A stretch of 47,673 bases of DNA from Eubacteriales bacterium (GTDB lineage: Bacteria; Bacillota; Clostridia; Christensenellales; Aristaeellaceae), in the NCBI GenBank assembly GCA_021371895.1, contig JAJFVI010000142.1, forward strand, positions 1-47,673, read 5' to 3'. Position 1 is the first letter of the stretch; every line of letters starts with the position of its first letter. Positions 21,874-45,341 of the stretch are shown here, piece by piece. Both the position numbers and the translations under genes were made by a program. The notes below the pieces were generated by a model. That model saw only the letters and a list, made by a program, of their open reading frames with translations. It was not told where the DNA came from and ran no database searches.

Positions 21874-22016
21874 CCGGGCAGGCCGCGCCGCGGCCTTCGT
21901 TTGATCGGGGTTTCGCCGCCCCGCCGTGTGGCGATCTTTGGGTGGTAAAAAGGAAAACCCTTCAATAAAGGCGAATAAAACCAGTTAGGATTTCTTTGGG
22001 GAAGGGAGCAATCGAC

Positions 22017-24164
22017 ATGCGGTCTGTCCACGCGCGTATTGGCGTGCGCCGCGATACTGCGGCGCTGTTTACGGTCGCTTCCCGCCCCGCGCGCGTCCAG
22101 CGGGGCAAGCGCCTCGCGCTGGCCTGTATGCTTGTATTGCTCTGTGCTTTGCTTTCCGGCTGCGCCGCGCTGGAGGTGCTCAGCACTCCGGCGCCCGCCG
22201 CCGATACGGTGTCCGCTGGCCCCAACCTGGGGCTGCTTGCTCTGCCGACCTACGAAAACGCCGAAGCCGAAAACCCTTCGGAAACCTCTTCCGGTTCTGG
22301 TTACGCCAACGTCGATCTCTGGCTGGACGCGACCCAGAACATGGGCGGCATCAGCACGGTGAAAAGCAGCATGTATCCCCATTCCGGGCGCAAATACCGC
22401 GAAGGCGGCTTCCAGTACCATTACGGCAATACCGTGGGCTGGTATGAAAGCCTGCTGCGGGATTTTCTGGCCGCCGCGGGCGAAACGCACGTGCGTACTC
22501 TGCGCTACGGCAATGAAACCCTGTCCGACGCGTTTCTGGCCGCAGCCGGCCTGACCGGGACGGACGGGCAGGTCACCGCGTCCGTGTGGCGGGATTTGCA
22601 CACCAGCCAGGTCGATACGAACGCTTCGTTCTTTTCCGGGCTGGCCGGCGAGGATATGGCCTCCAGCTTTTACGCGCTGGGTTCCGCCGCGTGGGTCAAC
22701 CGCCTTTCCGCGCTGGCGTCTTCCGATTTGGAAAATCCCACGCTGACGGACGCGATGAGCGCTGCGCTGGATCAACAGATCGCGGGCATCGCGCAGAAAG
22801 ACGACAGTTTTATTTTGCAGCAGGGGCGTGACGGAGAACAATGCGCCCTGCTCAGCGCGCTTGCCAATATCGATACGGATAAGCTCAGCGTGATTACCGT
22901 AGACCCCGCTTCCCTGCGTAAAACCAGCGGCGCGGACGCGCAGGGGCAGCCCATTGCCTATTACGGGCAGGTGCTGCAGGCGTTGGGCGTGTTCGATAAG
23001 GGGCTCTGCGTGGGTATGCTTGATTTTCAGCTGGATTATCTGGGGCAGCTGTCCACCATTTCCACGGCCACGCTCAGCGAGCCGCTCATCTGGGGGCATA
23101 TTATCCTGAACGAGAAAAAGCTGCTGGGCGTGATGCCGCGGCGGATGCTCACGCTGGTCATCGGGACGCGCGCGCGCGTGGACGCCTTTATCCAGAGCCT
23201 TACGCAATTGATCGACGCCGACGTTACGCTCAAGGGCTTGCGCGGAACCCAGGACGAAGAGCTTTCCTACGCCGCTGGCGGGCAGACCGTCGCTTCGCAG
23301 CCTTTCGGCTTTGCGTGGAACGCTACGGTCATCGCGCGGCCGAGCATGGGGTATTATTCCCAGCATACCGAGGGCGTCGTGCTGACCGCCGAAACCACAG
23401 GCGCCTCGGCGGCGGGCGCGACCGTCGCGACCGGCGAAAACGACGTGGCGCTGGTCAGTCTGACGCCCAACACGGAAGGTAAACAGCCCGACCGAACGCT
23501 AAACATAAGCTTCCCACTGCTTTCCGGCGAGGACGGCGCGTCGCTGGACGTGAGCCGTTTAGGCAAAGCGGGGTTGGAAACGCTGGATACGATACTTTTG
23601 TCCCAAACGCAGGAAAACACCTCCGAAAATCTGGCCGCCGCCGAAGCGAACGGGCAGGAAACCGTCGCCTACCGCGATATGCTTTATCTGTTCAGCCGCG
23701 GTACGGAAAGCGACGCCTTTTCGATCACCTCCATTACCGTGCAAAACGGCATGCTGGTCTGCACCGTCGCGGTTAACGGCGAAGCGCTCAAATCCGGCTA
23801 TTATCGGCTGCGTCTCACGGCGGACGCGACCGGCGAGCAGGTGGCTTGGGAAAGCGTGCCCTGGATCGACGGAGAGCAAAGCGTGTCCGCATCGGTCACC
23901 GACGCGGACGTGTACGCGTGGGAAACCTTCACCGCCGCCATAACGCAGTTCGACCGCGATTCCAAGGGCCTGCCCAAGATGTTCCGTAACGCATGGGGGC
24001 CGTATACCACCGATCTTTACCATGGTCTCGCCGTGCCGGCTTGCCCGCCTGTGTACAAGTCCATCCATCTTGCGGAGCTGGCAGCTCAATTCCGCGGCGC
24101 GGCCGCCGCGGACGAAAGCGCTCTGATCCGCTGCGTGTTTGAAGTTTTCGTCGCCTATCCCTAA
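22017..24164 (+). CDS. Large predicted lipoprotein of unknown function (first gene of the four-gene cluster)
   Basis: The ATG at 22017 follows GGGAAGGGAG. The N-terminus ...KRLALACMLVLLCALLSGC carries a lipobox, with the Cys codon at 22161-22163. I recognise no family. VDLWLDATQNMGG vaguely resembles a vWA MIDAS strand. Confidence 0.65.
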   Translation: MRSVHARIGVRRDTAALFTVASRPARVQRGKRLALACMLVLLCALLSGCAALEVLSTPAPAADTVSAGPNLGLLALPTYENAEAENPSETSSGSGYANVDLWLDATQNMGGISTVKSSMYPHSGRKYREGGFQYHYGNTVGWYESLLRDFLAAAGETHVRTLRYGNETLSDAFLAAAGLTGTDGQVTASVWRDLHTSQVDTNASFFSGLAGEDMASSFYALGSAAWVNRLSALASSDLENPTLTDAMSAALDQQIAGIAQKDDSFILQQGRDGEQCALLSALANIDTDKLSVITVDPASLRKTSGADAQGQPIAYYGQVLQALGVFDKGLCVGMLDFQLDYLGQLSTISTATLSEPLIWGHIILNEKKLLGVMPRRMLTLVIGTRARVDAFIQSLTQLIDADVTLKGLRGTQDEELSYAAGGQTVASQPFGFAWNATVIARPSMGYYSQHTEGVVLTAETTGASAAGATVATGENDVALVSLTPNTEGKQPDRTLNISFPLLSGEDGASLDVSRLGKAGLETLDTILLSQTQENTSENLAAAEANGQETVAYRDMLYLFSRGTESDAFSITSITVQNGMLVCTVAVNGEALKSGYYRLRLTADATGEQVAWESVPWIDGEQSVSASVTDADVYAWETFTAAITQFDRDSKGLPKMFRNAWGPYTTDLYHGLAVPACPPVYKSIHLAELAAQFRGAAAADESALIRCVFEVFVAYP

Positions 24165-24841: not shown

Positions 24842-24898
24842 GCTTTACGGCGCACACCGGCGATTCACCTGGGCTTCGCCCATGACTTGGGAGGCGCT

Positions 24899-27001
24899 AT
24901 GTCCAATTACCTCATCGCCGTAGGCGGCACCGGCAACAAGATACTGGAGGCGCTCGTATATGCCTGTGCGGCCGATGCGTTGTATACGCTGGACGCGCAG
25001 GGCCGCCGCACGCCCCTGCCGGAAGTCCGCGCCCTGATCGTGGATGTGGACGCTGCCTGCGGCAACACCACCCGCGCCAAACAGGCCGCCGAGCATTACG
25101 AACGGGTGCGTTCCGCCTTTGAAACCGCGGGAGTCAGCCGCCGCGGCTTTCACACGGCGCTTACGGTGGAACGCTGGAACATGAACCTCGCCAAACGCTC
25201 CGCCTCCATCGCCGGCATGACGCTTAACCACCGGCGTGATCGGCTGCTGGCCGAAAGCCTCTTTTCCCGCACCGAGGCGGAACTGGAATACAGCGAGGGC
25301 TTCCGCGGCCATCCCGATTTGGGCGTGCTGTTTTTTGCCGATCTGCTCAACCATCTGGGTGAGCGTGCCGCGCAGGGGCAGCCCGACGAAATGGTCGATC
25401 TGCTGGATCAGATCCAGCGGGATCTGGATGCGCTGGAAACGGTCAAGGTCATGCTGGTCGGTTCCATTTTCGGGGGCACCGGCGCCAGCGGCATCCCCAG
25501 CATCTCCCGCTACCTGCGCCAATGTTTCAGCAAGTACGCCGATCACTTCGTGCTTTCGTCGGTGATGATGCTGCCCTATTACGACGTGCCGCCCGCCACC
25601 GTGGACGAGACGTTGGAGATTGTGGTGAAATCCTCGCAATTTTTGGATAAAGCGCGCACCGCGCTGCAATACTACGGCATGGAGGGGATGATCCGCTCCG
25701 GCGAGGACGACCCCGACGGCCTGTATGACGCGCTGTATCTGCTGGGGCTGCCCCGCGATGCTTTTGTGACCACGCGCGTCTACTCCACCGGTTCCCAGAC
25801 GCAGGAAAACGACGCTCACCTGCTGGAATGGCTGGCTGTGCGCTGCGCTTCCATCTTCTTTCGCACCGGGTTTCGCGGCGCGGACGCGCATAACATCGAC
25901 TGCTATTATTACCAGTGGCACTCCCACGACGTATCCTGGGCATGTTTTGACGAGGAAGGCGCCTTGTACCATAACACCTTCGGCGGGCTCATCAAGGCGT
26001 CGGCGCTGTTTTTCTGCGAATGCTATCCCACGCTGCGCGCCTGCGTGCGCCGGGACGAGCGCCGGCTTTCCCGTACGGTCAATTACTGGACGACGTATTT
26101 TTACGACGCGCGCAAGCTGGGCGCAGGGAAACGCGCAGAGCTGGAAAAGCTGATCGATTCGCTTTACCGGCTGATGGCCTTCTACACCAACTGGATGTGG
26201 CAGGTGCTGCGAACGCTGCCCCCCACACTGCGGCCGGAGCGGGAGATTGAGTTGAAAACGCACGAGCTGCAGGCGGTGTACCGAAAGCTTGTGGATACGC
26301 AGGCGGAAAGCCTGGGCCGGGAAAGTGCGCCGGCTTCCGCCACAGGGGAGGACGATGGCACACAGGACGAATATAAACGCCTGAAAGCCAAGCTGGACGA
26401 GCTGATCCCCGCCGTGGGCGGACACGCGTTTTTAAACGCGCTGCAAGCAGAGCGTGAGTTTCGCGCGCAGCGCATGGAAGCCCAGCGGCAAGCATTAAAG
26501 GAGCAAAACGGCAGCATCGCGCGCTGGGAAGGGGAAGATCAGCACCTGATCGACCCCAAGGCACTTAGGCAGGAGAAAAGCCGCCGCGATACCATGCTGC
26601 GCGCGCTGGCCGGTATGGAGGATCGCGCCGCGCTGGTGGAAGCGGATATTGTGCGGGCCGTGGAAAAACATGTGGCGGACGTCACCCCCGCTCTGCGGGA
26701 CGACGAACCTTCTCCCAATAACCTGTTTTCGCCCACCGGGCTGAACGCGATGCACGATCTGCTGGCGCTCTACGGCGCCGAGGCGGAGGAGCGCGACCCC
26801 AAGGCCATGGAGGCGCTTCGCCGCGCCCTGTGGGACGGCTTAAACCGTATCGTCACCCAACGCGTGCCCGACTGTGTCACCGCGGCGCAGGCCGTGGCGG
26901 GGTTGGGCGGCGGCACGCGTGTGGGCGAAGGCCCGCAGGCGGCCTTCGCGAGCTTTACCGCGGCGCTGCTTGCCGCCGTGATGGAGGAGGAAAACGTATG
27001 A
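24899..27001 (+). CDS. Tubulin/FtsZ-superfamily-like GTPase with a long coiled-coil C-terminal region (candidate, Tubulin_2-like)
   Basis: The ATG at 24899 follows GGGAGG. A T1-like loop YLIAVGGTGNKILEAL is encoded near 24917-24940. The T4 signature-like GSIFGGTGASG has GGTGASG at 25472-25492. The C-terminal 250 aa or so are rich in E, R, Q, A and L in a heptad-like pattern. The assignment rests on motifs only. Confidence 0.55.
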   Translation: MSNYLIAVGGTGNKILEALVYACAADALYTLDAQGRRTPLPEVRALIVDVDAACGNTTRAKQAAEHYERVRSAFETAGVSRRGFHTALTVERWNMNLAKRSASIAGMTLNHRRDRLLAESLFSRTEAELEYSEGFRGHPDLGVLFFADLLNHLGERAAQGQPDEMVDLLDQIQRDLDALETVKVMLVGSIFGGTGASGIPSISRYLRQCFSKYADHFVLSSVMMLPYYDVPPATVDETLEIVVKSSQFLDKARTALQYYGMEGMIRSGEDDPDGLYDALYLLGLPRDAFVTTRVYSTGSQTQENDAHLLEWLAVRCASIFFRTGFRGADAHNIDCYYYQWHSHDVSWACFDEEGALYHNTFGGLIKASALFFCECYPTLRACVRRDERRLSRTVNYWTTYFYDARKLGAGKRAELEKLIDSLYRLMAFYTNWMWQVLRTLPPTLRPEREIELKTHELQAVYRKLVDTQAESLGRESAPASATGEDDGTQDEYKRLKAKLDELIPAVGGHAFLNALQAEREFRAQRMEAQRQALKEQNGSIARWEGEDQHLIDPKALRQEKSRRDTMLRALAGMEDRAALVEADIVRAVEKHVADVTPALRDDEPSPNNLFSPTGLNAMHDLLALYGAEAEERDPKAMEALRRALWDGLNRIVTQRVPDCVTAAQAVAGLGGGTRVGEGPQAAFASFTAALLAAVMEEENV

Positions 27002-30000
27002 AGCGCAGGCAGGAGGATCCGCGCGTGGCGCAACCGGCCCGGAAAGAAACCTACCTGACGCTGCTGCCCGATATGGACGAGGGCTTTCATACCGGTTACC
27101 AGACCCGCGCGGGCGTGGTGAGCGACGGTAATCAGCGTCCCCACGAGTGGCTGGAAAGCTTCGCGCGCAACATGCGAACCGCCGGGGAGGACGTCGGCTA
27201 CTCCATTCCGGACGTGCTTGCGGGCGAGGCGCAGCTGCGCCGCCTGATGCGCATGCCCCACGAGGCGGCGATGCGCCATCAGGAAATGGTGGACTGGCGC
27301 GGAGCGCTGGCGGTGCTGCTGCTTTGGGACGGATGGGTGAAGGACGATACCTGGCCCCAGCTCAGCTGCGAGGATATGCTTTCAGGGGAGGGCGGCGCGT
27401 TTCTCCACAGCGTGCGCGCGGCGCTGCCCGCAAACCGAAAAGCCTTTGGGATACGGCTGTTTTTCCTGTCCACGGAACGCGATGGTGTGCCCGAGCGCAA
27501 GGCGCTGGGTATGCTTTCGCCTGTCGTGGCGCTCGCGCCTGCCGCCAACCCCGGCGATCTATCGGGGCTGCTGCCCAAGTGCGTGCATTGGTATAACCGT
27601 GACCGCAAGCGCTTTGAGGATCCCTGCGCCTTTTTAGATGAGGCCGATCGCGCGCGGCTGCTGCAGTACCTTCGCTACCTGCAGGCGCTCAACGAGCGTA
27701 CCGATCTGCAAAGCCCGCTGTACGCAACGGACGCGTCCCTCAGCGGGCTGATCGACCGGTTTATCCGCGATCTGCAAACGCCGCGCACTTCCTGGCGGGA
27801 ACGGTTGGAGGCGGGTGACCCGCACGCGCAGACGGAACTCTACATCCGCGCGTTGGCGGTGTACGGCCTTATGGAGATCAGCGGCCTTACGGGACTCACC
27901 CGGCGGGATATTCCCCTGTCCATCGCGGAGCTCAACTGCAACGTGCTTTTACGCTGGCTGGTTTCCGAGGGCGTCGCCCCGCCGGAGGAATTTGCCGGCA
28001 TCACCGTGACCACCTACGCGTTTGACGGCCTGCCGTTTGCCATCGCCTCCCCGCGTTACCTGCTGGAACCGGTCAACCGGCCGGAAGAGACGGCCACGCT
28101 GCAGCGGCTGTGGGCGGAGATTTCGCTTCCGCTGCAATATAACGGGGAGTGGAACCGCGCCGTGGCCAAGCGCTTTGTGGAGTTGGCCAACCACCTTACC
28201 GGCTTTTCCGGCACCGACAGCCGCGCCAGCCGCCGCGTGATCGAATTGATGCGGCAATGGAGCGCGAAGCTTGCCAATTTCCGCGAATCGGGCGACCGGG
28301 TGCTTTCGCTGAAGCTGCCGCTTTCGGATATGCCCTCCACACTGTCCGGCTTGACGCGGGAGATGGTGGGCATTGACGATACGGAGGCGCTGGCGGGCGC
28401 GTTTTCGGATTGTCTGCTGCTGTGCGCAGGCGACCCGCCCTTTGGCGACGTGGTGCTCAACGAACACTGCGCGGTGCGCGGCGCGGAAAAGTTATACGCC
28501 ATTCCGCCGGTGGCCCCGGCGCTTGCGCTGTGGCTGTCGCGCGCGGCCGAGGAAAGCCAGGATGATCTGCTGCGCCCCCGCCTGCCCGCCGAAGCGTTTG
28601 ATTTTGAGCTGATTCAGGATGCCCATGGGCGTAAGATTCGCGCCCGGATGCACCTTACGCGCAAACAACGTGCGCAGGACGCAACCTTTCAAAACCGCAT
28701 TGAACTGACCAGCGATTATACGTTGGGTACGGAATTTGCCCGGGGGACTGCGGTACCGGTGGCGACCGGGGATTTGCCCACGGTGCGCTGCTGGCCCGCC
28801 GCGCGTCTGGCGCGGGGGCAATGGACAGCCTACTATGTGCTCGCCCAGCGGCCGGACGCGGTGGATGTGCTGGTGCCCGGCGAGGACGGCATGGTACAGG
28901 GTGAGCCGCGCTGCGTTGCGGACGGCGAGGGGGAGCCCCCCGCCGAGCACCGCTGGCAGACCGCACGCACCCGCACCTGGCCGATGTACGTGGCGCTGGC
29001 CCGCGGTAAGCTGAGCCTTGGCGTGTTGCCCAACGACGAACCCGTTTTGCAGCTCAAGCGTGAGGCCCCTGCCGCCGTCGCCATCGATTTCGGCTCCAAC
29101 GCCACCACCGTGATGCTCCGGCAGGGGGAACAGATACGCCCGGCCTCGTTGCCGCCCGAGATGCTTAAAACTTTGCTGAAAGGACGTGTGCAGGACGACT
29201 TGCGCCTGCCTGACGAGCTGCTGCCTGCCCTCTGCTACATGGACGAACGCCGCCCCTCCACCTTTATCAGCGTGATGGACATGTTCAGCGATGACGAGCA
29301 GAAATGGAACGTCCCGCTGCTGGACGGGCACATCTATTACGCGCCCGATCTGGCCGCGCTGCTCAAAAAGAACCCCAACGTCCTCTACTACGATCTCAAA
29401 TGGGGTGAGGAACCCTATGTGGTGCGGTGCCTTCGGCTCTTTCTGAAACAAACTATGCTGCAGGCTTCGCTGGCGGCGCGGCTGGTCGGCTCGCCGACGC
29501 TCAGCTGGCGTATTTCCATGCCCAACGCCATGCCGCTTTACCGGCAGGAAGCTTATCTGGAAATGGTGCGCTCGCTAAGCAAGGAAGTCGCCGCCGATAC
29601 GGGCATGCAGCTGACCGGGGATATGCCGGCAGTACTCTTCGCCCATGAAAACCAGGCGGACGGCCTTTATTTCCGCTACCGTAACGAGGTCAATGCGCGC
29701 AACGGCTATGTGAACATGGACGTGGGCGGCGGTACGACCGACCTGAGCGTGTGGCTGGGCGGCGCGTCGCGGGCTTCCATTGAGGCGTCGCTGCTGCTGG
29801 GTTGCCGGCAGATTCTCTTCGATTCGCTTTCCTCACGCCGCCGTGCCGAGTTCGAGGCGGATTTTGCCAATGCGGACGCGGGTTTGTACCGTCTGGTGCA
29901 GGAGATGGTGCGCGCTTTCGCGGCCGGCCGCAATTCGCTGCGTGCCCGCCAGAAAAACGTATTCCTGCTGGATGCGTTTTTTGCCCGCCATAGCGAAAGC

Positions 30001-30648
30001 ATCGCCGAAACCATGGCCGCCATCCGCGGCGAAGGCCGGGTGAGCCTGCTGGAAAGTCTGCTGCTCTTGAACTTCGGCTTCCTCTTCCGCCTTTGCGGAG
30101 AATTGCTGGATCGCTGTGATTACAGCGAAGAAACCCGCGCCCAGCTTTGCCCGCGTATGGAGATCTGCGTGGCGGGCAACGGCGGCCAGTTTTTAAAGAT
30201 CTTTGACCGCGATACGCGCACCAAGCTGTTCCGCCTGGCGCTTTCCGCCCTTAACCCCGATCACCCCGTGCGGGAGCTGATATTGCTGCAAAGTCGGCAT
30301 CCCAAGCAGGAGGTCGCCCGCGGGTTGCTGGCGGATATTACGCGTCTGGCCAGCAGCGTGCAGGGCGGCGAGGCCGTGGGCCCCGCGCAAACGCTGGCGG
30401 TGCCTTCGGAGAAGCGCCGCGCACTGCTCAAGGAATACTTACAGGATTTTTATTCCGCCTTCCCTCAGGCGGGGGAAAAGCTGCTGGGCAGAGCTTTTGA
30501 GCGGGATGTGAACCCGCAGGTCGTGCGGTTGAAGGCCGCCGCCGAGATTGAGCTGGAAACGGTGCTGGACAACGAAATGGACGACGGGGACGAATTCGGC
30601 GGGTACGTGCGCGCCTTCGCCGCCATGAAGCGTCTGTGGGAAATCTGA
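26998..30648 (+). CDS. 1216-aa protein with C-terminal actin/Hsp70-fold (ASKHA) ATPase motifs
   Basis: The ATG at 26998 overlaps the upstream stop as ATGA. Phosphate-1-like AAVAIDFGSN is at 29071-29100. Phosphate-2-like DVGGGTTD is at 29719-29742. Adenosine-like VAGNGGQ is at 30169-30189. I recognise no motif in the N-terminal 690 aa or so. Confidence 0.6.
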   Translation: MKRRQEDPRVAQPARKETYLTLLPDMDEGFHTGYQTRAGVVSDGNQRPHEWLESFARNMRTAGEDVGYSIPDVLAGEAQLRRLMRMPHEAAMRHQEMVDWRGALAVLLLWDGWVKDDTWPQLSCEDMLSGEGGAFLHSVRAALPANRKAFGIRLFFLSTERDGVPERKALGMLSPVVALAPAANPGDLSGLLPKCVHWYNRDRKRFEDPCAFLDEADRARLLQYLRYLQALNERTDLQSPLYATDASLSGLIDRFIRDLQTPRTSWRERLEAGDPHAQTELYIRALAVYGLMEISGLTGLTRRDIPLSIAELNCNVLLRWLVSEGVAPPEEFAGITVTTYAFDGLPFAIASPRYLLEPVNRPEETATLQRLWAEISLPLQYNGEWNRAVAKRFVELANHLTGFSGTDSRASRRVIELMRQWSAKLANFRESGDRVLSLKLPLSDMPSTLSGLTREMVGIDDTEALAGAFSDCLLLCAGDPPFGDVVLNEHCAVRGAEKLYAIPPVAPALALWLSRAAEESQDDLLRPRLPAEAFDFELIQDAHGRKIRARMHLTRKQRAQDATFQNRIELTSDYTLGTEFARGTAVPVATGDLPTVRCWPAARLARGQWTAYYVLAQRPDAVDVLVPGEDGMVQGEPRCVADGEGEPPAEHRWQTARTRTWPMYVALARGKLSLGVLPNDEPVLQLKREAPAAVAIDFGSNATTVMLRQGEQIRPASLPPEMLKTLLKGRVQDDLRLPDELLPALCYMDERRPSTFISVMDMFSDDEQKWNVPLLDGHIYYAPDLAALLKKNPNVLYYDLKWGEEPYVVRCLRLFLKQTMLQASLAARLVGSPTLSWRISMPNAMPLYRQEAYLEMVRSLSKEVAADTGMQLTGDMPAVLFAHENQADGLYFRYRNEVNARNGYVNMDVGGGTTDLSVWLGGASRASIEASLLLGCRQILFDSLSSRRRAEFEADFANADAGLYRLVQEMVRAFAAGRNSLRARQKNVFLLDAFFARHSESIAETMAAIRGEGRVSLLESLLLLNFGFLFRLCGELLDRCDYSEETRAQLCPRMEICVAGNGGQFLKIFDRDTRTKLFRLALSALNPDHPVRELILLQSRHPKQEVARGLLADITRLASSVQGGEAVGPAQTLAVPSEKRRALLKEYLQDFYSAFPQAGEKLLGRAFERDVNPQVVRLKAAAEIELETVLDNEMDDGDEFGGYVRAFAAMKRLWEI

Positions 30649-37922: not shown

Positions 37923-38915
37923 TCACGGTTGCGGATTGCTGCCGTCCTGTCCGTCTTCTTCGTCCTCATCAGTTTCCACATAGAGGCCTCGGTTGAGTTG
38001 CGCGCCTTCGATTTTTACGTTGATGTACTTATCAAACACGGCGTTTGTGTAGCTGGCAGCCACGAACCGGCTGAGAGAAAAACCCAAAAGCACGTAGTAG
38101 AGGATGCAGATCATCAGCGCCCATTGGAAATACGGCGTCAGATAGCTGACTACCGCAGCGATCAGCACAGGCACGATGGAAAGCAACTTCAGCCCCACCG
38201 TGATCGGCAAACGACCGATGGTTAAAAGGAGGCTGTTGCGCAGCACGTCGCGGTAGCGGAGGTGGTAGGTAACGATCAGCGGGTAGGTGTACATCAGGCT
38301 CATCAGCCACACAATGCCCAGCAGAAGCGTCAGCACCTGCGGAATGATATAGAGCGTATTGCTTTGCGCCATCTGCCCGTAAAACGACCAACATACGTAC
38401 ACGATCACCGGCACAAATCCCGTGATGACGCTGGTGATGAGCCCCTGCTTCCAGTTTTCCTTTACGGCGTCCTTATAATCACCCCACAGAAAGGCGTGCT
38501 CGTCGCGTGCCCAGTTGCGGGTTACCAGGCTGATGCCTGCCGTAAACGGACCCGTAATGGCAAGCGCCGGGATTAAGAATAGCAGCCCCTGGAATGCTAT
38601 TGACTTTATGGCGTCCACGTACAGCGCCTGTTGCGTGGCAAACTCCGCAGCCGCCAGCGTACCCGCGTCCAACTGAGCCTGCATGTCGGCCAGATTGACC
38701 GTGGCCGAGTAGAACATAAGCACATGGAAGCCGATCACCAGCAGCGCCGGAAGCCAGCTTAGCATATACAACAAATTTAACCGCATCAACCCACTGAAGC
38801 GCGTGCGCAGCGTCTCCCAGAAAAGCTGGGTGCGGGTTCCGGGCAGATCCTCGTGGGTGTAATCCCCCTTACCGCTCTTTCCGTAGAAGTAACCATTCAT
38901 GAATTTTCCAAACAT
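37923..38915 (-). CDS. DUF624 (YesL-like) multi-pass membrane protein
   Basis: 330 aa. The N-terminus (FWETLRTRFSGLMRLNLLYMLSWLPALLVIG) and several TM segments resemble the YesL/DUF624 family. It has an acidic C-terminal tail. Confidence 0.65.
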   Translation of the reverse strand: MFGKFMNGYFYGKSGKGDYTHEDLPGTRTQLFWETLRTRFSGLMRLNLLYMLSWLPALLVIGFHVLMFYSATVNLADMQAQLDAGTLAAAEFATQQALYVDAIKSIAFQGLLFLIPALAITGPFTAGISLVTRNWARDEHAFLWGDYKDAVKENWKQGLITSVITGFVPVIVYVCWSFYGQMAQSNTLYIIPQVLTLLLGIVWLMSLMYTYPLIVTYHLRYRDVLRNSLLLTIGRLPITVGLKLLSIVPVLIAAVVSYLTPYFQWALMICILYYVLLGFSLSRFVAASYTNAVFDKYINVKIEGAQLNRGLYVETDEDEEDGQDGSNPQP

Positions 38916-38967
38916 AAACCGTACCTCCCCTGTGTGCCGCGCGCATGACGCTAACGACCGTTAAAAT

Positions 38968-38996
38968 ATTATACCATGTTTTTGTTCAATCCACAA
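38968..38996 (-). promoter_or_regulatory. Candidate promoter of the DUF624 gene
   Basis: The minus strand reads TTGTGG, N17, then TGgTATAAT (TATAAT at 38973-38968). It lies about 50 nt upstream of the ATG at 38915. Confidence 0.45.
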
Positions 38997-39087
38997 CCAG
39001 CGCAAGTCCAGCATTTTCAACGTTCTTTGAACTTTTTCCACCCGTAAATTATGCTAAAGTTGCGCCCATTAGTAACAGGTTAGTATC

Positions 39088-39243
39088 TTAGTTTACGGCA
39101 GCTTCCGCGTCCTGCGCAGCCTGTTTCATGGCGCTTCGCACCTCGTCGGGCGATACGCCGGGGGCAACGCACACGGTTACCGTAACCTTCCCGGAATCCG
39201 TAAAACTTAACATGGTCATGTCGGGTTTTTCTTCATCAACCAT
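39088..39243 (-). CDS. Small hypothetical phage ORF (51 aa, not in the ORF track)
   Basis: My hand translation reads MVDEEKPDMTMLSFTDSGKVTVTVCVAPGVSPDEVRSAMKQAAQDAEAAVN. The ATG at 39243 overlaps the upstream stop (ATGGTTGA) and is preceded by GGAGGA. Confidence 0.35.
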   Translation of the reverse strand: MVDEEKPDMTMLSFTDSGKVTVTVCVAPGVSPDEVRSAMKQAAQDAEAAVN

Positions 39244-41386: not shown

Positions 41387-42493
41387 TTATGCCACCTTTC
41401 TTTTCTTGATGTGGGTCATATAGTAATGAGCGCAATGCTTAGTCAGGGGCGTAATATATTTCTGTTGCAGCCGATAACTGTTACAGTGCGCCAACCACCC
41501 ATAATAGGAATTAACCGAACACCATTGAGAATAATTCATTTCTTCGCCGCGATCCGCTTTCAACTGAATCAGGCTCAATTTTGCTTTCATCTGCTTGCAG
41601 GTAGATTTTCTTAGCAGAGTGAAATTTAAATATATCCGATAGCCGACAAAATCAATACCCCGCACGAAGGTAGGAAACACTTGCCAGTTGGGTTTGATCG
41701 TCAGCTTTAATTTCTCTTGAAAATAGGTATCAATCTTTTTCTTCAGCAGGTGAAGGGCTTCTTTGTTGCTTCCCAAAATGACTACATCGTCCATGTATCG
41801 GAAATAGTATTTTACTTTGCATGTTTCTTTCATCCAGTGGTCAAAAGCGGAAAGGTAGAAGTTGCCGCCATATTGCGAATGGTAATTCCCTATCGGCAAG
41901 CCTTTGTGTTCGTTTGCTTCGGCTCGCAATCGCAACAAATCGTCTGGTTCTGCGGTATCAACGCTGTCAATAATTTCGTCCAGTGCCGCAAGCAGTTCTG
42001 CGTCTTTAAAAACCCTACGGTATTTCTGCTTTAGCACCCCGTGGTCTATGGATTGGTAAAAGTGCCGCACATCAAATTTCAGGCAATACTGTGTTCCCGG
42101 CACATCACTTTTAATGGCTTGCTTCACGTCCCGTAACGCTATGTGTATCCCTCTGCCCGGTATTGCGGAATAGGTTTTGGGGATCAGATTTTTCATTAAA
42201 ATAGGTTCAATCACCTGCAATATTGCCCATTGCGCGATTCGGTCAGGAAAGTAAGGCAGCTTGTATATTTTGCGAATTTTCCCGCCTTCGCGTTTTAGGA
42301 AAGTTTCGTAATTCGATGTTTTGAAAGTATGCTTCACAAGCATTTCCTGAAGCATCATCAGATAGTATTCCAAGTTTTGGTCAACGTCCAACACTTCTTG
42401 ATACCACCCTTTGCCTTTACGCGCGTGCAGGTGGGCAAGTTTCAAATTTTCCATGGCGCATACCTGATTCCACAGATTTCCGTATCTTTTCAC
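41387..42493 (-). CDS. DGR-type reverse transcriptase
   Basis: The RT motifs are present, including YFRYMDDVVILG (YMDD). The DGR-diagnostic motif GLPIGNYHSQ (I/LGxxxSQ) is also present. The likely start is the GTG at 42493 (VKRYGNLW...), preceded by AAAGGTG. The ORF track extends to a TTG at 42532. Confidence 0.9.
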   Translation of the reverse strand: MKRYGNLWNQVCAMENLKLAHLHARKGKGWYQEVLDVDQNLEYYLMMLQEMLVKHTFKTSNYETFLKREGGKIRKIYKLPYFPDRIAQWAILQVIEPILMKNLIPKTYSAIPGRGIHIALRDVKQAIKSDVPGTQYCLKFDVRHFYQSIDHGVLKQKYRRVFKDAELLAALDEIIDSVDTAEPDDLLRLRAEANEHKGLPIGNYHSQYGGNFYLSAFDHWMKETCKVKYYFRYMDDVVILGSNKEALHLLKKKIDTYFQEKLKLTIKPNWQVFPTFVRGIDFVGYRIYLNFTLLRKSTCKQMKAKLSLIQLKADRGEEMNYSQWCSVNSYYGWLAHCNSYRLQQKYITPLTKHCAHYYMTHIKKRKVA

Positions 42494-42668
42494 GTTTGCA
42501 CCTTTCGTGTATGCAGATTGCCGAACCTTCAACCTACCGATGGTTTACCAGCACGGCTTCTGAAACATTTTTCTGTTTTGCCAAGGGGCAGGGTAAACCG
42601 GATAGGCTATATTGAAGCCCCCTCTGGTTTGCGCCAAAGGGGGCGTTCAACCATTTTTGCATTGATCA

Positions 42669-42775
42669 AGCCGCCTGCTGATATTCCGATTGCGATTCGC
42701 TGACGTATTATTCACATTCAGATAGAACTCACTCGCATTACTGCCATTATTCCAATTACTGCCTAGTTTACAAAC
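42669..42775 (-). repeat. DGR template repeat (TR)
   Basis: 107 nt that align without gaps to 42867-42973 at an offset of 198. The coding-strand TR translates to VCKLGSNWNNGSNASEFYLNVNNTSANRNRNISRR and is rich in AAY Asn codons. Confidence 0.9.
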
Positions 42776-42838
42776 TAAAATAATGTTTTTTATGCGAATG
42801 GTTATCAGTTGGGCATATCCGGTTTACCCATGGTCAAA

Positions 42839-44623
42839 CTATGCAGCCATGGAAGGTACATACACCAGCCGCCCGCCGACAGCCCGAGAGCGAGTCGCCG
42901 ACGCAGTAGCCACAGTCAGAAAGAACCCACCCGCATCACCGCCACTATGCCAACCACCGCCCAGCGAACAAACCCGCCAACCAGCGGTTGCGACATCCTG
43001 CCAGAAGTAATCGCCCACGGGTACAGAACTGTTGCCTGTGGTTCCGGACGGGATAAACAGCCAGTCGTATTCTTCGTTGTAAGCGAACGCGGAAATGTAT
43101 CCGTTCGCCTGCGCAATACTGATCCCGGCGTTCTTGTAGGGGGTAGCTTCGGAATCATCCGCGAAGGTGTTATCCGCAATAAACACTTCGCCAACAGCGT
43201 TTTTCACGTTGATCCCGTCCACCCATTTCCAGATGTTGCCGAAGAAGTTTTCTTCACCGCGATAGCTGATCACGTTGAAGCCGTTTCCGTTTGTCACCGA
43301 ACCGGAAGCGTTGCCAAGGTTAGAGGTCGCGCCGCTTATTTCTGTCATGGCGGTACTTCCATCGTCGGTTTTGGTGGTTACCCCGTTGCCTAACCCGGTT
43401 TGCATGTTCATCGCGCCATATTCGATCGTGTACAACAGTTCGGACAGCGCGACAGTCTGCACAAGTTGCTGTTGCCAACCGGAACCGCGATTGTTCGCCA
43501 GTTTCCGCGTCTTAGCACGGGTCAGGTCGTTAACCAGTCCGCTTGCGGGCTTCGCGCCGCCAATGGAGCTTAGCTTGTCACCCGTGGTTACGGTAAAGTC
43601 AGCGGTCACCGTATCGTTCAGAATGTAGGCAGCAGCGGAAACATCGTAGATACTGCCTTCGTATGCGGAAAGGTAGATCACGTTGTTTTCAACGCCGTTG
43701 TATTTGAACGCGGGGTGCAGCTTAAACCCTGCTTTGGGGGTCATGCTGATGTAATACCGCGCCTTGCGCAGATGGTAACCCTTGCCGTTGCCTTGCGCAA
43801 TCTTTTCCGTAACCAGCGGCACGACCCGATAATAGCATTTCGGTTGTTCCACCATCACCTGCACGCTGGTACCAATAGGGTACGTGGTTCCCCCAATGGT
43901 AATGGCGCTGATCAACGCGCCGCTTTCGGTGTATCCGGCATCCCCGTAATAAGCGAGCACTTTACCAGCGTCCGTAACAATGCAACGCCTGCGCCCGCCA
44001 AAACAGCCAATCGTGTCAAAACTCGCGCCGGATGTTTTTCCAATCGCTCCGGCTAATCTCGTGAAGGTTTTATTGGTGTAATCGACCTCAACGCCGTATA
44101 CGTCGTTTTCCGTATACCCAACGTATCCTTTCAATTTTGCGATCTCTGCCGTTAAAGTGTTTACATCGCCGATGGACGCGTATCCGGCAGGGTCTACCGT
44201 CAGCGTCACCTGCGAAGCGCTTCCCACCGTCACAAGGAACTTGAAGTACGCGCCGCTTACCGTAACGCCGTTAGAAGGCGGCATATAACCCGCTGTCAAG
44301 GCGCGGGCAACCGCATAGAGGATTTCCCCTTCGTCCGGATCAGTCGCGTATAGGCCAATGGTCTGTATTTGGTATCCGGTGCTCAAAGCGCTGTTGTCAA
44401 TCGCGCCTTCCACCAGTACCGATGTGCTGTTGGATATGGTTTTCTTCGTAATCGGGGCGCTTTGCTTGATGTTGGTAAGCGCCGTGAGCGCGGCAATCTG
44501 CCCTTCCGTGTAAACCGTGCTGGATAGCTTAATCGCGGTAAAATTGCAAAAACCAGACCCCAGCATCAGTTTTGCCATCAGGGCGTGGCCTTTGTTGGTA
44601 ATCACAAACGTACTGAATTCCAT
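42839..44623 (-). CDS. Tail fibre / receptor-binding protein, DGR target with a C-terminal Mtd-like (C-type-lectin-fold) variable domain
   Basis: It sits after the baseplate genes and carries the VR in its last 45 codons or so. I prefer the ATG at 44623 (MEFSTFVITNKG) over the ORF-track TTG at 44653. Confidence 0.85.
   Translation of the reverse strand: MEFSTFVITNKGHALMAKLMLGSGFCNFTAIKLSSTVYTEGQIAALTALTNIKQSAPITKKTISNSTSVLVEGAIDNSALSTGYQIQTIGLYATDPDEGEILYAVARALTAGYMPPSNGVTVSGAYFKFLVTVGSASQVTLTVDPAGYASIGDVNTLTAEIAKLKGYVGYTENDVYGVEVDYTNKTFTRLAGAIGKTSGASFDTIGCFGGRRRCIVTDAGKVLAYYGDAGYTESGALISAITIGGTTYPIGTSVQVMVEQPKCYYRVVPLVTEKIAQGNGKGYHLRKARYYISMTPKAGFKLHPAFKYNGVENNVIYLSAYEGSIYDVSAAAYILNDTVTADFTVTTGDKLSSIGGAKPASGLVNDLTRAKTRKLANNRGSGWQQQLVQTVALSELLYTIEYGAMNMQTGLGNGVTTKTDDGSTAMTEISGATSNLGNASGSVTNGNGFNVISYRGEENFFGNIWKWVDGINVKNAVGEVFIADNTFADDSEATPYKNAGISIAQANGYISAFAYNEEYDWLFIPSGTTGNSSVPVGDYFWQDVATAGWRVCSLGGGWHSGGDAGGFFLTVATASATRSRAVGGRLVYVPSMAA
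42867..42973 (-). repeat. DGR variable repeat (VR) in the 3' end of the tail-fibre gene
   Basis: It differs from the TR at 28 of 107 positions, every one at a TR coding-strand adenine (28 of 34 TR adenines changed). All 73 non-adenine positions are identical. It encodes VCSLGGGWHSGGDAGGFFLTVATASATRSRAVGGR. Confidence 0.9.
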
Positions 44624-44645: not shown

Positions 44646-45341
44646 TTACCCAATCATGGCGGTACCGCATATGCCATTTGCAACCAGCATGTTACCGTTT
44701 ATGTTGACGGTTTCGGCTATATCGTTTGTCAGAAACAGCATTTCGGTTTGTTCCATGCCTGCCGCAAGGTATTCTGGCACATTTGCGGCGCATTCCCCGG
44801 TCAGGTCGTTGGTCAGGAAAAGCGTGTTGGTTTCAGTAATGCCCCCACCGTATCGCATCTGCCCGGCAGTTAGTCCTTCCAGCTTGTTTTGTGAAATGAT
44901 TCTTAGGTTGCAAGGCATAATTGCTTTCAACAGGTAAGCCAGATCGTCCACCTGCCCGCGCTGTTCAAGGCGGGTCGTAATGGTGATTTCGTACTCGGTT
45001 GTTGAAACCTCAACTTCAATATTCTCATTTCCCTGTATGGAAACGATCTTATTGCGTAAGGTTTTCAACGTATAGGGGGTAACGTCGTTCCACCGGGCGA
45101 ATAGCCGGGTGCGCCGCAAGGCTAACGTATCGTCGGCAAAGGGCAGGACACCCACAATTTTTTCAAACCGTGCGATTCCGTCTGCGTCCGCGCTGTCAAT
45201 AAACAGGTTGTCAAGTAGCCGCCCGCATTCATCGGATAGCGTTTGAAATTCCGGTTCTTCGGCCTGAATCAACCGCACAAGCTCTTTGTATTCCTGCATG
45301 ATCGGGGGCAGGTAACCGATCATATCCACGTTATGCGCCAT
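44646..45341 (-). CDS. Phage tail/baseplate protein, XkdU/YmfQ-like (DUF2313-like)
   Basis: 231 aa. The N-terminus ...YLPPIMQEYKELVRLIQAEEPEFQ... and its position after baseplate J fit this family. Confidence 0.7.
   Translation of the reverse strand: MAHNVDMIGYLPPIMQEYKELVRLIQAEEPEFQTLSDECGRLLDNLFIDSADADGIARFEKIVGVLPFADDTLALRRTRLFARWNDVTPYTLKTLRNKIVSIQGNENIEVEVSTTEYEITITTRLEQRGQVDDLAYLLKAIMPCNLRIISQNKLEGLTAGQMRYGGGITETNTLFLTNDLTGECAANVPEYLAAGMEQTEMLFLTNDIAETVNINGNMLVANGICGTAMIG

Follow-up and report, generated by a model that had tools for sequence, protein, structure and literature searches.

Diversity-generating retroelements (DGRs) occur in temperate Clostridia phages, where proteins of the tail structure are their targets, and they are active in nature (Roux 2021, PMC8144416; PMC11792537). 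In the set of Wu et al. (2018, PMC5758913), 75 of 372 DGRs belonged to Architecture A, in which a template repeat (TR) occurs with the gene for a reverse transcriptase (RT) and with no accessory gene; avd was not found elsewhere in these genomes, and Avd-independent homing was proposed. For the Bordetella element, the complex of its RT (bRT), Avd and RNA was solved by Handa et al. (bioRxiv 10.1101/2023.10.23.563531), who named the cPRT Stop, in which a duplex of upstream and spacer sequence is followed by a short stem-loop and by adenosines with A-minor contacts, and predicted it in 207 DGRs, all selected for avd. The stretch analysed here (the window) is 47,673 nt of contig JAJFVI010000142.1 (GenBank assembly GCA_021371895.1) from an Eubacteriales bacterium, and it very probably carries a DGR without avd. 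The element lies where a prophage with a contractile tail ends, among its tail-fibre and lysis genes, in a Clostridia (Oscillospiraceae-like) chromosome.

All DGR parts were located on the minus strand, in the order target gene with variable repeat (VR), TR and RT:

42839..44623, minus strand: tail-fibre target gene, 594 aa, ATG at 44623 (the mechanical open reading frame starts from TTG at 44653)
42867..42973, minus strand: VR, encoding VCSLGGGWHSGGDAGGFFLTVATASATRSRAVGGR(L), close to the C-terminus of the target, in its last ~36 residues
42669..42775, minus strand: A-rich non-coding TR, containing 34 A and, when read in the VR frame, 11 AAT codons
41387..42493, minus strand: DGR RT, 368 aa, GTG start, with the Shine-Dalgarno sequence AAAGGUG at 42499-42505

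The VR ends 25 nt ahead of the target stop codon, the stop codon lies 63 nt from TR, and TR lies 175 nt from the RT start.

A repeat search of the window returned one 107-nt direct repeat, with 74% identity and 198-nt spacing. The first-pass annotation had claimed from a hand count that TR and VR align without gaps over 107 nt and differ at 28 positions, all of them adenines of the coding-strand TR, and the computational comparison, made base by base, agreed on each point: 28 mismatches and 0 indels were found, every mismatch fell on a coding-strand A of TR (T on the plus strand), 28 of the 34 A were changed, and 73 of the 73 non-A positions were identical. Neither a substitution outside adenine nor an indel was present. 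In the coding sense A was changed to G 17 times, to C 8 times and to T 3 times (T>C 17, T>G 8 and T>A 3 on the plus strand), and the chance of 28 random mismatches all falling on 34 A is C(34,28)/C(107,28) = 3e-20. The homology broke off sharply at both ends.

Read in the target frame, TR encodes VCKLGSNWNNGSNASEFYLNVNNTSANRNRNISRR and VR encodes VCSLGGGWHSGGDAGGFFLTVATASATRSRAVGGR, with 20 amino-acid differences, and these translations were the same as those from which an Asn-rich template and a diversified copy had been described earlier. The TR adenines are distributed over codon positions 1, 2 and 3 as 18:13:3. A template of AAT codons is the classic DGR design, by which 15 amino acids are possible and no stop codon can arise. 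A second VR-like copy was not found in the window, the best other match agreeing at 36 of the 73 non-A positions. The 3' end of VR is the G/C-only CGGCGGGCGGC and its TR counterpart is CAGCAGGCGGC, an asymmetry which was also seen in the related loci L002 and L005. As a candidate cruciform flanking VR, just a weak CCATGG...CCATGG stem was seen, and this candidate was rejected.

The target was confirmed as a tail fibre, as the first-pass annotation had it. Its N-terminal domain is the Pfam tail-collar fibre domain PF12571 (E 3.9e-7), it matched phrog_5302 'tail protein' end to end (E 4.7e-147), and upstream of it stand genes of the DUF2577, sheath-initiator, Baseplate_J and Mu gp48-like kinds, the last two directly before it. 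The ATG at 44623 was taken as the start since all homologues begin with MEF. A full-length AlphaFold2 (AF2) model, built on 59 homologues, had a mean predicted local distance difference test score (pLDDT) of 85, with C-terminal blocks mostly at 81-94 and the majority of them above 90. Its best fold matches in PDB by Foldseek were TaqVP (5vf4, E 1.5e-11, probability 1.0) and next Mtd (1yu0-1yu4, E from 6.5e-4, probability at least 0.96), which are DGR variable proteins. Sequence identity in these matches was 10-16% and the global TM score was 0.2-0.5, the low TM scores being due to the target being a multi-domain fibre. In the viral structure library the model matched 'tail collar fiber proteins', some of them tail fibres of crAss-like phages, and a sequence search of the target against PDB gave nothing at E up to 1. 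The C-type-lectin fold, for which a check had been proposed, thus appears in the predicted structure, and the variable residues are modelled on a fold of this type at the fibre C-terminus. By this match in fold the target would work like Mtd and TaqVP, yet outside their sequence families. A separate AF2 model of residues 375-604 reached a pLDDT of 54 and was discarded for the full-length model.

The GTG start of the RT lies six bases past the Shine-Dalgarno sequence, and relatives align over residues 1-368. The motif IGNYHSQ, cited in the first-pass annotation as DGR-specific, was present at 41873-41893 and the catalytic YMDD at 41786-41797. The protein has Pfam RVT_1 and matched phrog_1423 (E 4.9e-125). 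Among solved structures its closest relative was bRT of the Bordetella phage (8ub7), at E 2.7e-33, and in that alignment IGNYHSQ stands opposite IGSLTSQ; RTs of the group II and retron types matched at E 1e-11 or worse, leaving bRT ahead by 22 orders of magnitude. Against NCBIfam the RT scored 92.7 bits for the group II model TIGR04416 (cut-off 300), 39.9 bits for Retron_St85 (cut-off 235), 61.9 bits for Drt3a (cut-off 200) and 48.7 bits for Drt2 (cut-off 390), and Drt5 was also far below its cut-off. An Rfam scan of the window found neither group II intron RNA nor retron RNA, only RT-17. In a tblastn search of GenBank phages the matches of the RT included crAss-like phage RT genes, and phage records from Bacteroides, Faecalibacterium and Bordetella were also among them. 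These sequence comparisons support an RT of DGR type, neither group II nor retron/Drt, and the grouping with group II or retron RTs, which had been named as a possible refutation, was not what was found.

The RNA between the target stop codon and the RT start holds several elements, all on the minus strand:

42816..42829, minus strand: upstream duplex strand GGGUAAACCGGAUA, between the target stop codon and TR, from folding and covariation
42617..42644, minus strand: stable 10-bp GC-rich hairpin GCCCCCU...AGGGGGC, in the spacer, 24 nt past TR
42591..42604, minus strand: downstream duplex strand UAUCCGGUUUACCC, in the spacer, abutting the RT-17 hairpin
42579-42590, minus strand: 4-bp RT-17 hairpin UGCCCCUUGGCA, next to the downstream duplex strand
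42567-42578, minus strand: A-rich run AAACAGAAAAA, after the hairpin
42507..42595, minus strand: Rfam RT-17 (RF03020) motif, 52.6 bits by cmscan against a gathering threshold of 40.4, E 1.8e-7

The RT-17 match covers model positions 1-95 of 95 and ends 13 nt ahead of the RT start; RT-17 was present too in L002 and L003. RT-1 to RT-19 adjoin RT genes, and RT-10 alone was tied to a DGR (Weinberg et al. 2017). Here RT-17 is assigned to the DGR spacer of this lineage. The absence of avd, this assignment and the covariation-backed duplex bracketing TR are new relative to the first-pass annotation.

The RNA from 42840 to 42490 folded at -126.5 kcal/mol (z = -6.95 versus shuffles), and the perfect 14-bp long-range duplex GGGUAAACCGGAUA:UAUCCGGUUUACCC, which brackets TR, was equalled in none of 200 shuffles. 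Related loci have the duplex in the same place with other sequences, such as GGGCAAACGGU, AGGCAUUUGAUA and GGUUGUUCAGGGA, and 16 distinct versions of at least 9 bp were counted among them. Covariation was examined in a sequence-only MAFFT alignment of 42 loci, over the eight hairpin-proximal duplex pairs and the hairpin. Paired cells amounted to 95.5%, versus 81.4 +/- 0.9% in shuffles, with 0 of 500 shuffles reaching the observed value; changes on both sides occurred in 9 of 12 pairs, and pairing fell to 31-51% when the partner was slid by 1-3 columns. The duplex, stem-loop and A-run correspond to the cPRT Stop layout, which here occurs in a lineage without avd. The GC-rich hairpin at 42617-42644 has a different sequence at its position in L002 and L005 and is absent in several lineages. 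At the corresponding place BPP-1 has stem-loops that bind Avd; avd was not found here. A scan for promoters and terminators around the cassette gave nothing above chance.

Another possible pairing was observed in the same RNA. The nearly invariant AAUGCA(C) at 42658-42663 (minus strand), just past TR, is complementary to (G)UGCAUAC at 42509-42516 (minus strand), which is also nearly invariant and stands just before the RT Shine-Dalgarno sequence. The pairing has 5 bp in the window and 6-9 bp in relatives, with some compensatory changes; its mean extension was 1.48, compared with 1.10 +/- 0.14 for shuffled partners, and 13 of 2000 shuffles reached the observed value. If real, this pairing would give a pseudoknot together with the duplex that brackets TR, and it may be the template:primer helix. 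As for a primer strand of the BPP-1 style, 5' of the spacer duplex strand, inspection by eye gave only 4-bp AU matches to the TR end.

About 60 distinct related loci have the VR-TR-RT layout as well, their TR and RT standing only 115-220 nt apart, and relatives of the target were found in at least 470 stretches of IMG/VR. The avd gene is missing from the cassette across the whole family of related loci. Across the 59 homologues the AAT-templated positions have an entropy of about 3 bits, and between them stands an invariant scaffold (G565, W568, G575, F577, R588, R590 and G593-R595). In four clusters of at least 90% identity, nearly all of the 15 listed members have a different VR, with the scaffold unchanged. 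This pattern in the sequences is strong evidence for a family of DGRs active in nature. The comparison of VR among relatives, as proposed in the first-pass annotation, could thus be made between the members of these related clusters, and a near-identical copy of the locus itself was not found in the collections searched.

Some TR adenines fall on the scaffold. In the TR codons AGT, GAG, AGC and AGG (VR residues 566, 575, 576, 593 and 594) an A is kept where family VRs have G, and such retention was seen in the TRs of three lineages. Gly is invariant at VR residues 575, 593 and 594, and residues 566 and 576 are mostly Gly or Ala. From a rare Cys, seen once in a member of the clusters, it can be told that a retained-A position of this kind gets mutagenised. 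Because these adenines sit at near-invariant Gly positions, most homing events should yield defective fibres; alternatively, the last two of them may mark the boundary between the initiation of mutagenic homing sequence (IMH) and IMH*.

Decayed members were also observed in the family. The closest target homologue in any collection, in L001, has 75% identity and is without TR and RT; in L001:6001-8137 a diversified-looking VR is kept, and the sequence becomes homologous to the window again 41 nt within the RT 3' end. The loci L028, L070 and L073 retain RT C-terminal fragments only, and from these four loci it follows that the TR-RT module was lost repeatedly by deletion. In L002:5499-6790 and L003:5451-6742 the RT is split into open reading frames of 97 aa and 330-333 aa. 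This looks like a real frameshift, seen in two independent assemblies (JGI and NCBI), and L004 ends before the break; the split-RT loci still carry a TR/VR pair with 26 A-specific differences. In GenBank phages, megablast gave only a 91-nt TR match, to the cultured Clostridium phage CS266P3 (L095, OP172777.1). At 46742-47855 and 1-450 this genome has an unannotated target homologue of 46.5% identity, which runs across the terminal repeat and is followed by a TR 82-84% identical to that of the window and then by the UGCCACUUGGCA hairpin and an A-run. By tblastn no RT was found across the CS266P3 genome, and the locus is an orphan VR-TR remnant.

Two other explanations of the locus were weighed. 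That the repeat arose by ordinary duplication or recombination followed by point mutations, with an unrelated RT of group II, retron or defence type beside it, is extremely improbable. It could draw on the weak matches of the RT to NCBIfam models for group II (E 2e-26), Drt3a and retrons, which are expected for any prokaryotic RT and fall far below the curated cut-offs. Under this explanation all 28 differences would have fallen on one base of one copy at the chance of 3e-20 given above, the best solved relative of the RT would not be bRT by such a distance, RT-17 would not be the RNA that Rfam finds in place of a group II intron or retron RNA, and the same arrangement would not recur in dozens of loci.

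A fossil DGR, which diversified the fibre in the past and has since lost retrohoming, for example through the loss of a required factor such as Avd, is a more serious rival, though still an unlikely one. Several points speak for it and weigh against a working element. Avd is essential in the Bordetella paradigm, and Avd and HRDC profiles had no match in the 49 open reading frames of at least 50 aa on both strands of 39.0-47.7 kb, where 8.7 kb of the prophage are visible, the remainder lying beyond the window. Decay is common in the family, by the split RT of L002 and L003 and the TR-RT deletions of L001, L028, L070 and L073, to which CS266P3 without RT may be added. Sister copies from which variation could be read were not found in the collections searched: the full TR pattern with each A masked as N had no match in contigs of the genome, viral and metagenome sets, and neither the RT nor its 84-aa neighbour had an exact match on record. 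As a further point against a working element, no strong GC-rich hairpin like that of BPP-1 was found 3' of VR, the whole 101-nt flank folding at only -8.3 kcal/mol. Set against the fossil are the full-length RT with its catalytic YMDD and the intact TR, RT-17 motif and 14-bp duplex. The complete lack of non-A differences between TR and VR over 73 positions, although relatives differ by 25-40%, argues for recent homing, and close relatives within the family, avd-less as it is, nearly all differ in their VR. In addition, 29% of the DGRs in a curated set lack avd or any other accessory gene, and since Architecture A there shares the layout, the missing avd is a known architecture and no anomaly (Wu 2018, PMC5758913).

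The first-pass reading of an intact DGR diversifying a receptor-binding protein was therefore retained as to its parts, all of which are intact, and as to the TR/VR signature, its intactness being judged from those parts and not from observed variation. The acidic 84-aa open reading frame 3' of the RT was considered as CH1 and rejected, as it has half the CH1 size; a similar 82-aa open reading frame at the same position in the DGR-less relative L001 also ruled it out.

For a DGR working without Avd, the following steps may be proposed by analogy with known elements. The RNA from just past the target stop codon to the RT start would be transcribed, and the 14-bp duplex, joined by the neighbouring hairpin of 4 bp and the A-run (both in the 5' part of RT-17), would enclose TR in a cPRT Stop-like manner. 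The RT would then copy TR into cDNA, placing random nucleotides opposite the adenines, and the cDNA would replace VR. As an outcome, at most about 20 codons, including the 11 AAT codons, could be rewritten on the C-type-lectin-like domain at the fibre C-terminus; this would allow about 1e18 protein variants and hence a changed receptor specificity. By inference, the present copy may still be active and may do without Avd, and the point at which priming begins would likewise be an inferred one. A broader proposal, tentative and on balance doubtful, is that a widespread Avd-less phage lineage may retrohome mutagenically with RT and RNA alone; in it the cPRT Stop is kept, the template:primer pairing is moved to AUGCA(C):(G)UGCAU in a pseudoknot with the duplex, and the RNA or the basic C-terminal tail of the RT takes the role of Avd.

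Tail-fibre DGRs have been catalogued by the thousands in gut viromes, and as one of them this element is nothing conceptually new. Its practical value lies in a compact two-component cassette of TR and RT, about 1.45 kb without avd, from a family evidently active in nature, and in well-defined RNA elements, namely RT-17, left unassigned by Weinberg et al. (2017), and the covariation-backed duplex. The family is therefore a reasonable candidate for studying Avd-independent cDNA priming and stopping, and likewise for minimal DGR-based mutagenesis tools.

As for the surroundings, an 84-aa open reading frame, an XkdX/CD1375-like one and an NlpC/P60-SH3 lysin were found 3' of the RT. Near 39 kb the GC content, about 0.61 up to there, goes down to about 0.50, and in positions 1-38.9 kb lie genes for housekeeping proteins of a bacterium, PurL and Hsp33 among them, which places the cassette at the end of a prophage. 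The junction of prophage and chromosome was observed at about 38900-39100, the last bacterial gene being a DUF624 membrane protein, and no tRNA gene was found anywhere in the window. The host, an Oscillospiraceae-like member of the Clostridia, has a PurL with no more than 56-62% identity to that of any GTDB species representative. Three large chromosomal open reading frames, at 26830-30648 (plus strand, 1272 aa), 21996-24164 (plus strand, 722 aa) and 24845-26425 (minus strand, 526 aa), had no Pfam match at E 1e-5 or better.

Compared with known systems, the locus shares with the BPP-1 DGR (mtd-avd-TR-brt) the adenine-specific transfer from TR to VR, by which the receptor-binding domain at the C-terminus of a phage tail fibre is altered, the I/LGxxxSQ motif in the RT, and a TR bracketed by an upstream:spacer duplex followed by a short stem-loop and adenosines, as in the cPRT Stop. 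It differs in that BPP-1 has avd, whereas none was found in the visible prophage here, in that the spacer RNA is Rfam RT-17 and not RT-10, and in that the GC-rich hairpin past VR of BPP-1 has no clear counterpart. The RT is 40 aa longer than bRT and has a basic C-terminal tail, and the target is similar to Mtd in fold and not in sequence. TaqVP (5vf4) and Mtd (1yu0) have VR at the extreme C-terminus as the target here does, but no sequence homology could be detected between them and the target.

Like the DGRs of gut Oscillospiraceae/Faecalibacterium prophages and of the viral DGR clades in IMG/VR, the element belongs to a temperate Clostridia phage and has a tail-structure target; unlike those catalogued, its closest target protein is just 75% identical and stands without TR-RT. 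The arrangement agrees with Architecture A of Wu 2018, which has a TR-RT core and an upstream target and is without avd, HRDC, MSL and CH1. In the same paper (PMC5758913) a single target of Mtd type is listed with a phage tail-collar fibre motif at its N-terminus, the domain combination that the target described here has too.

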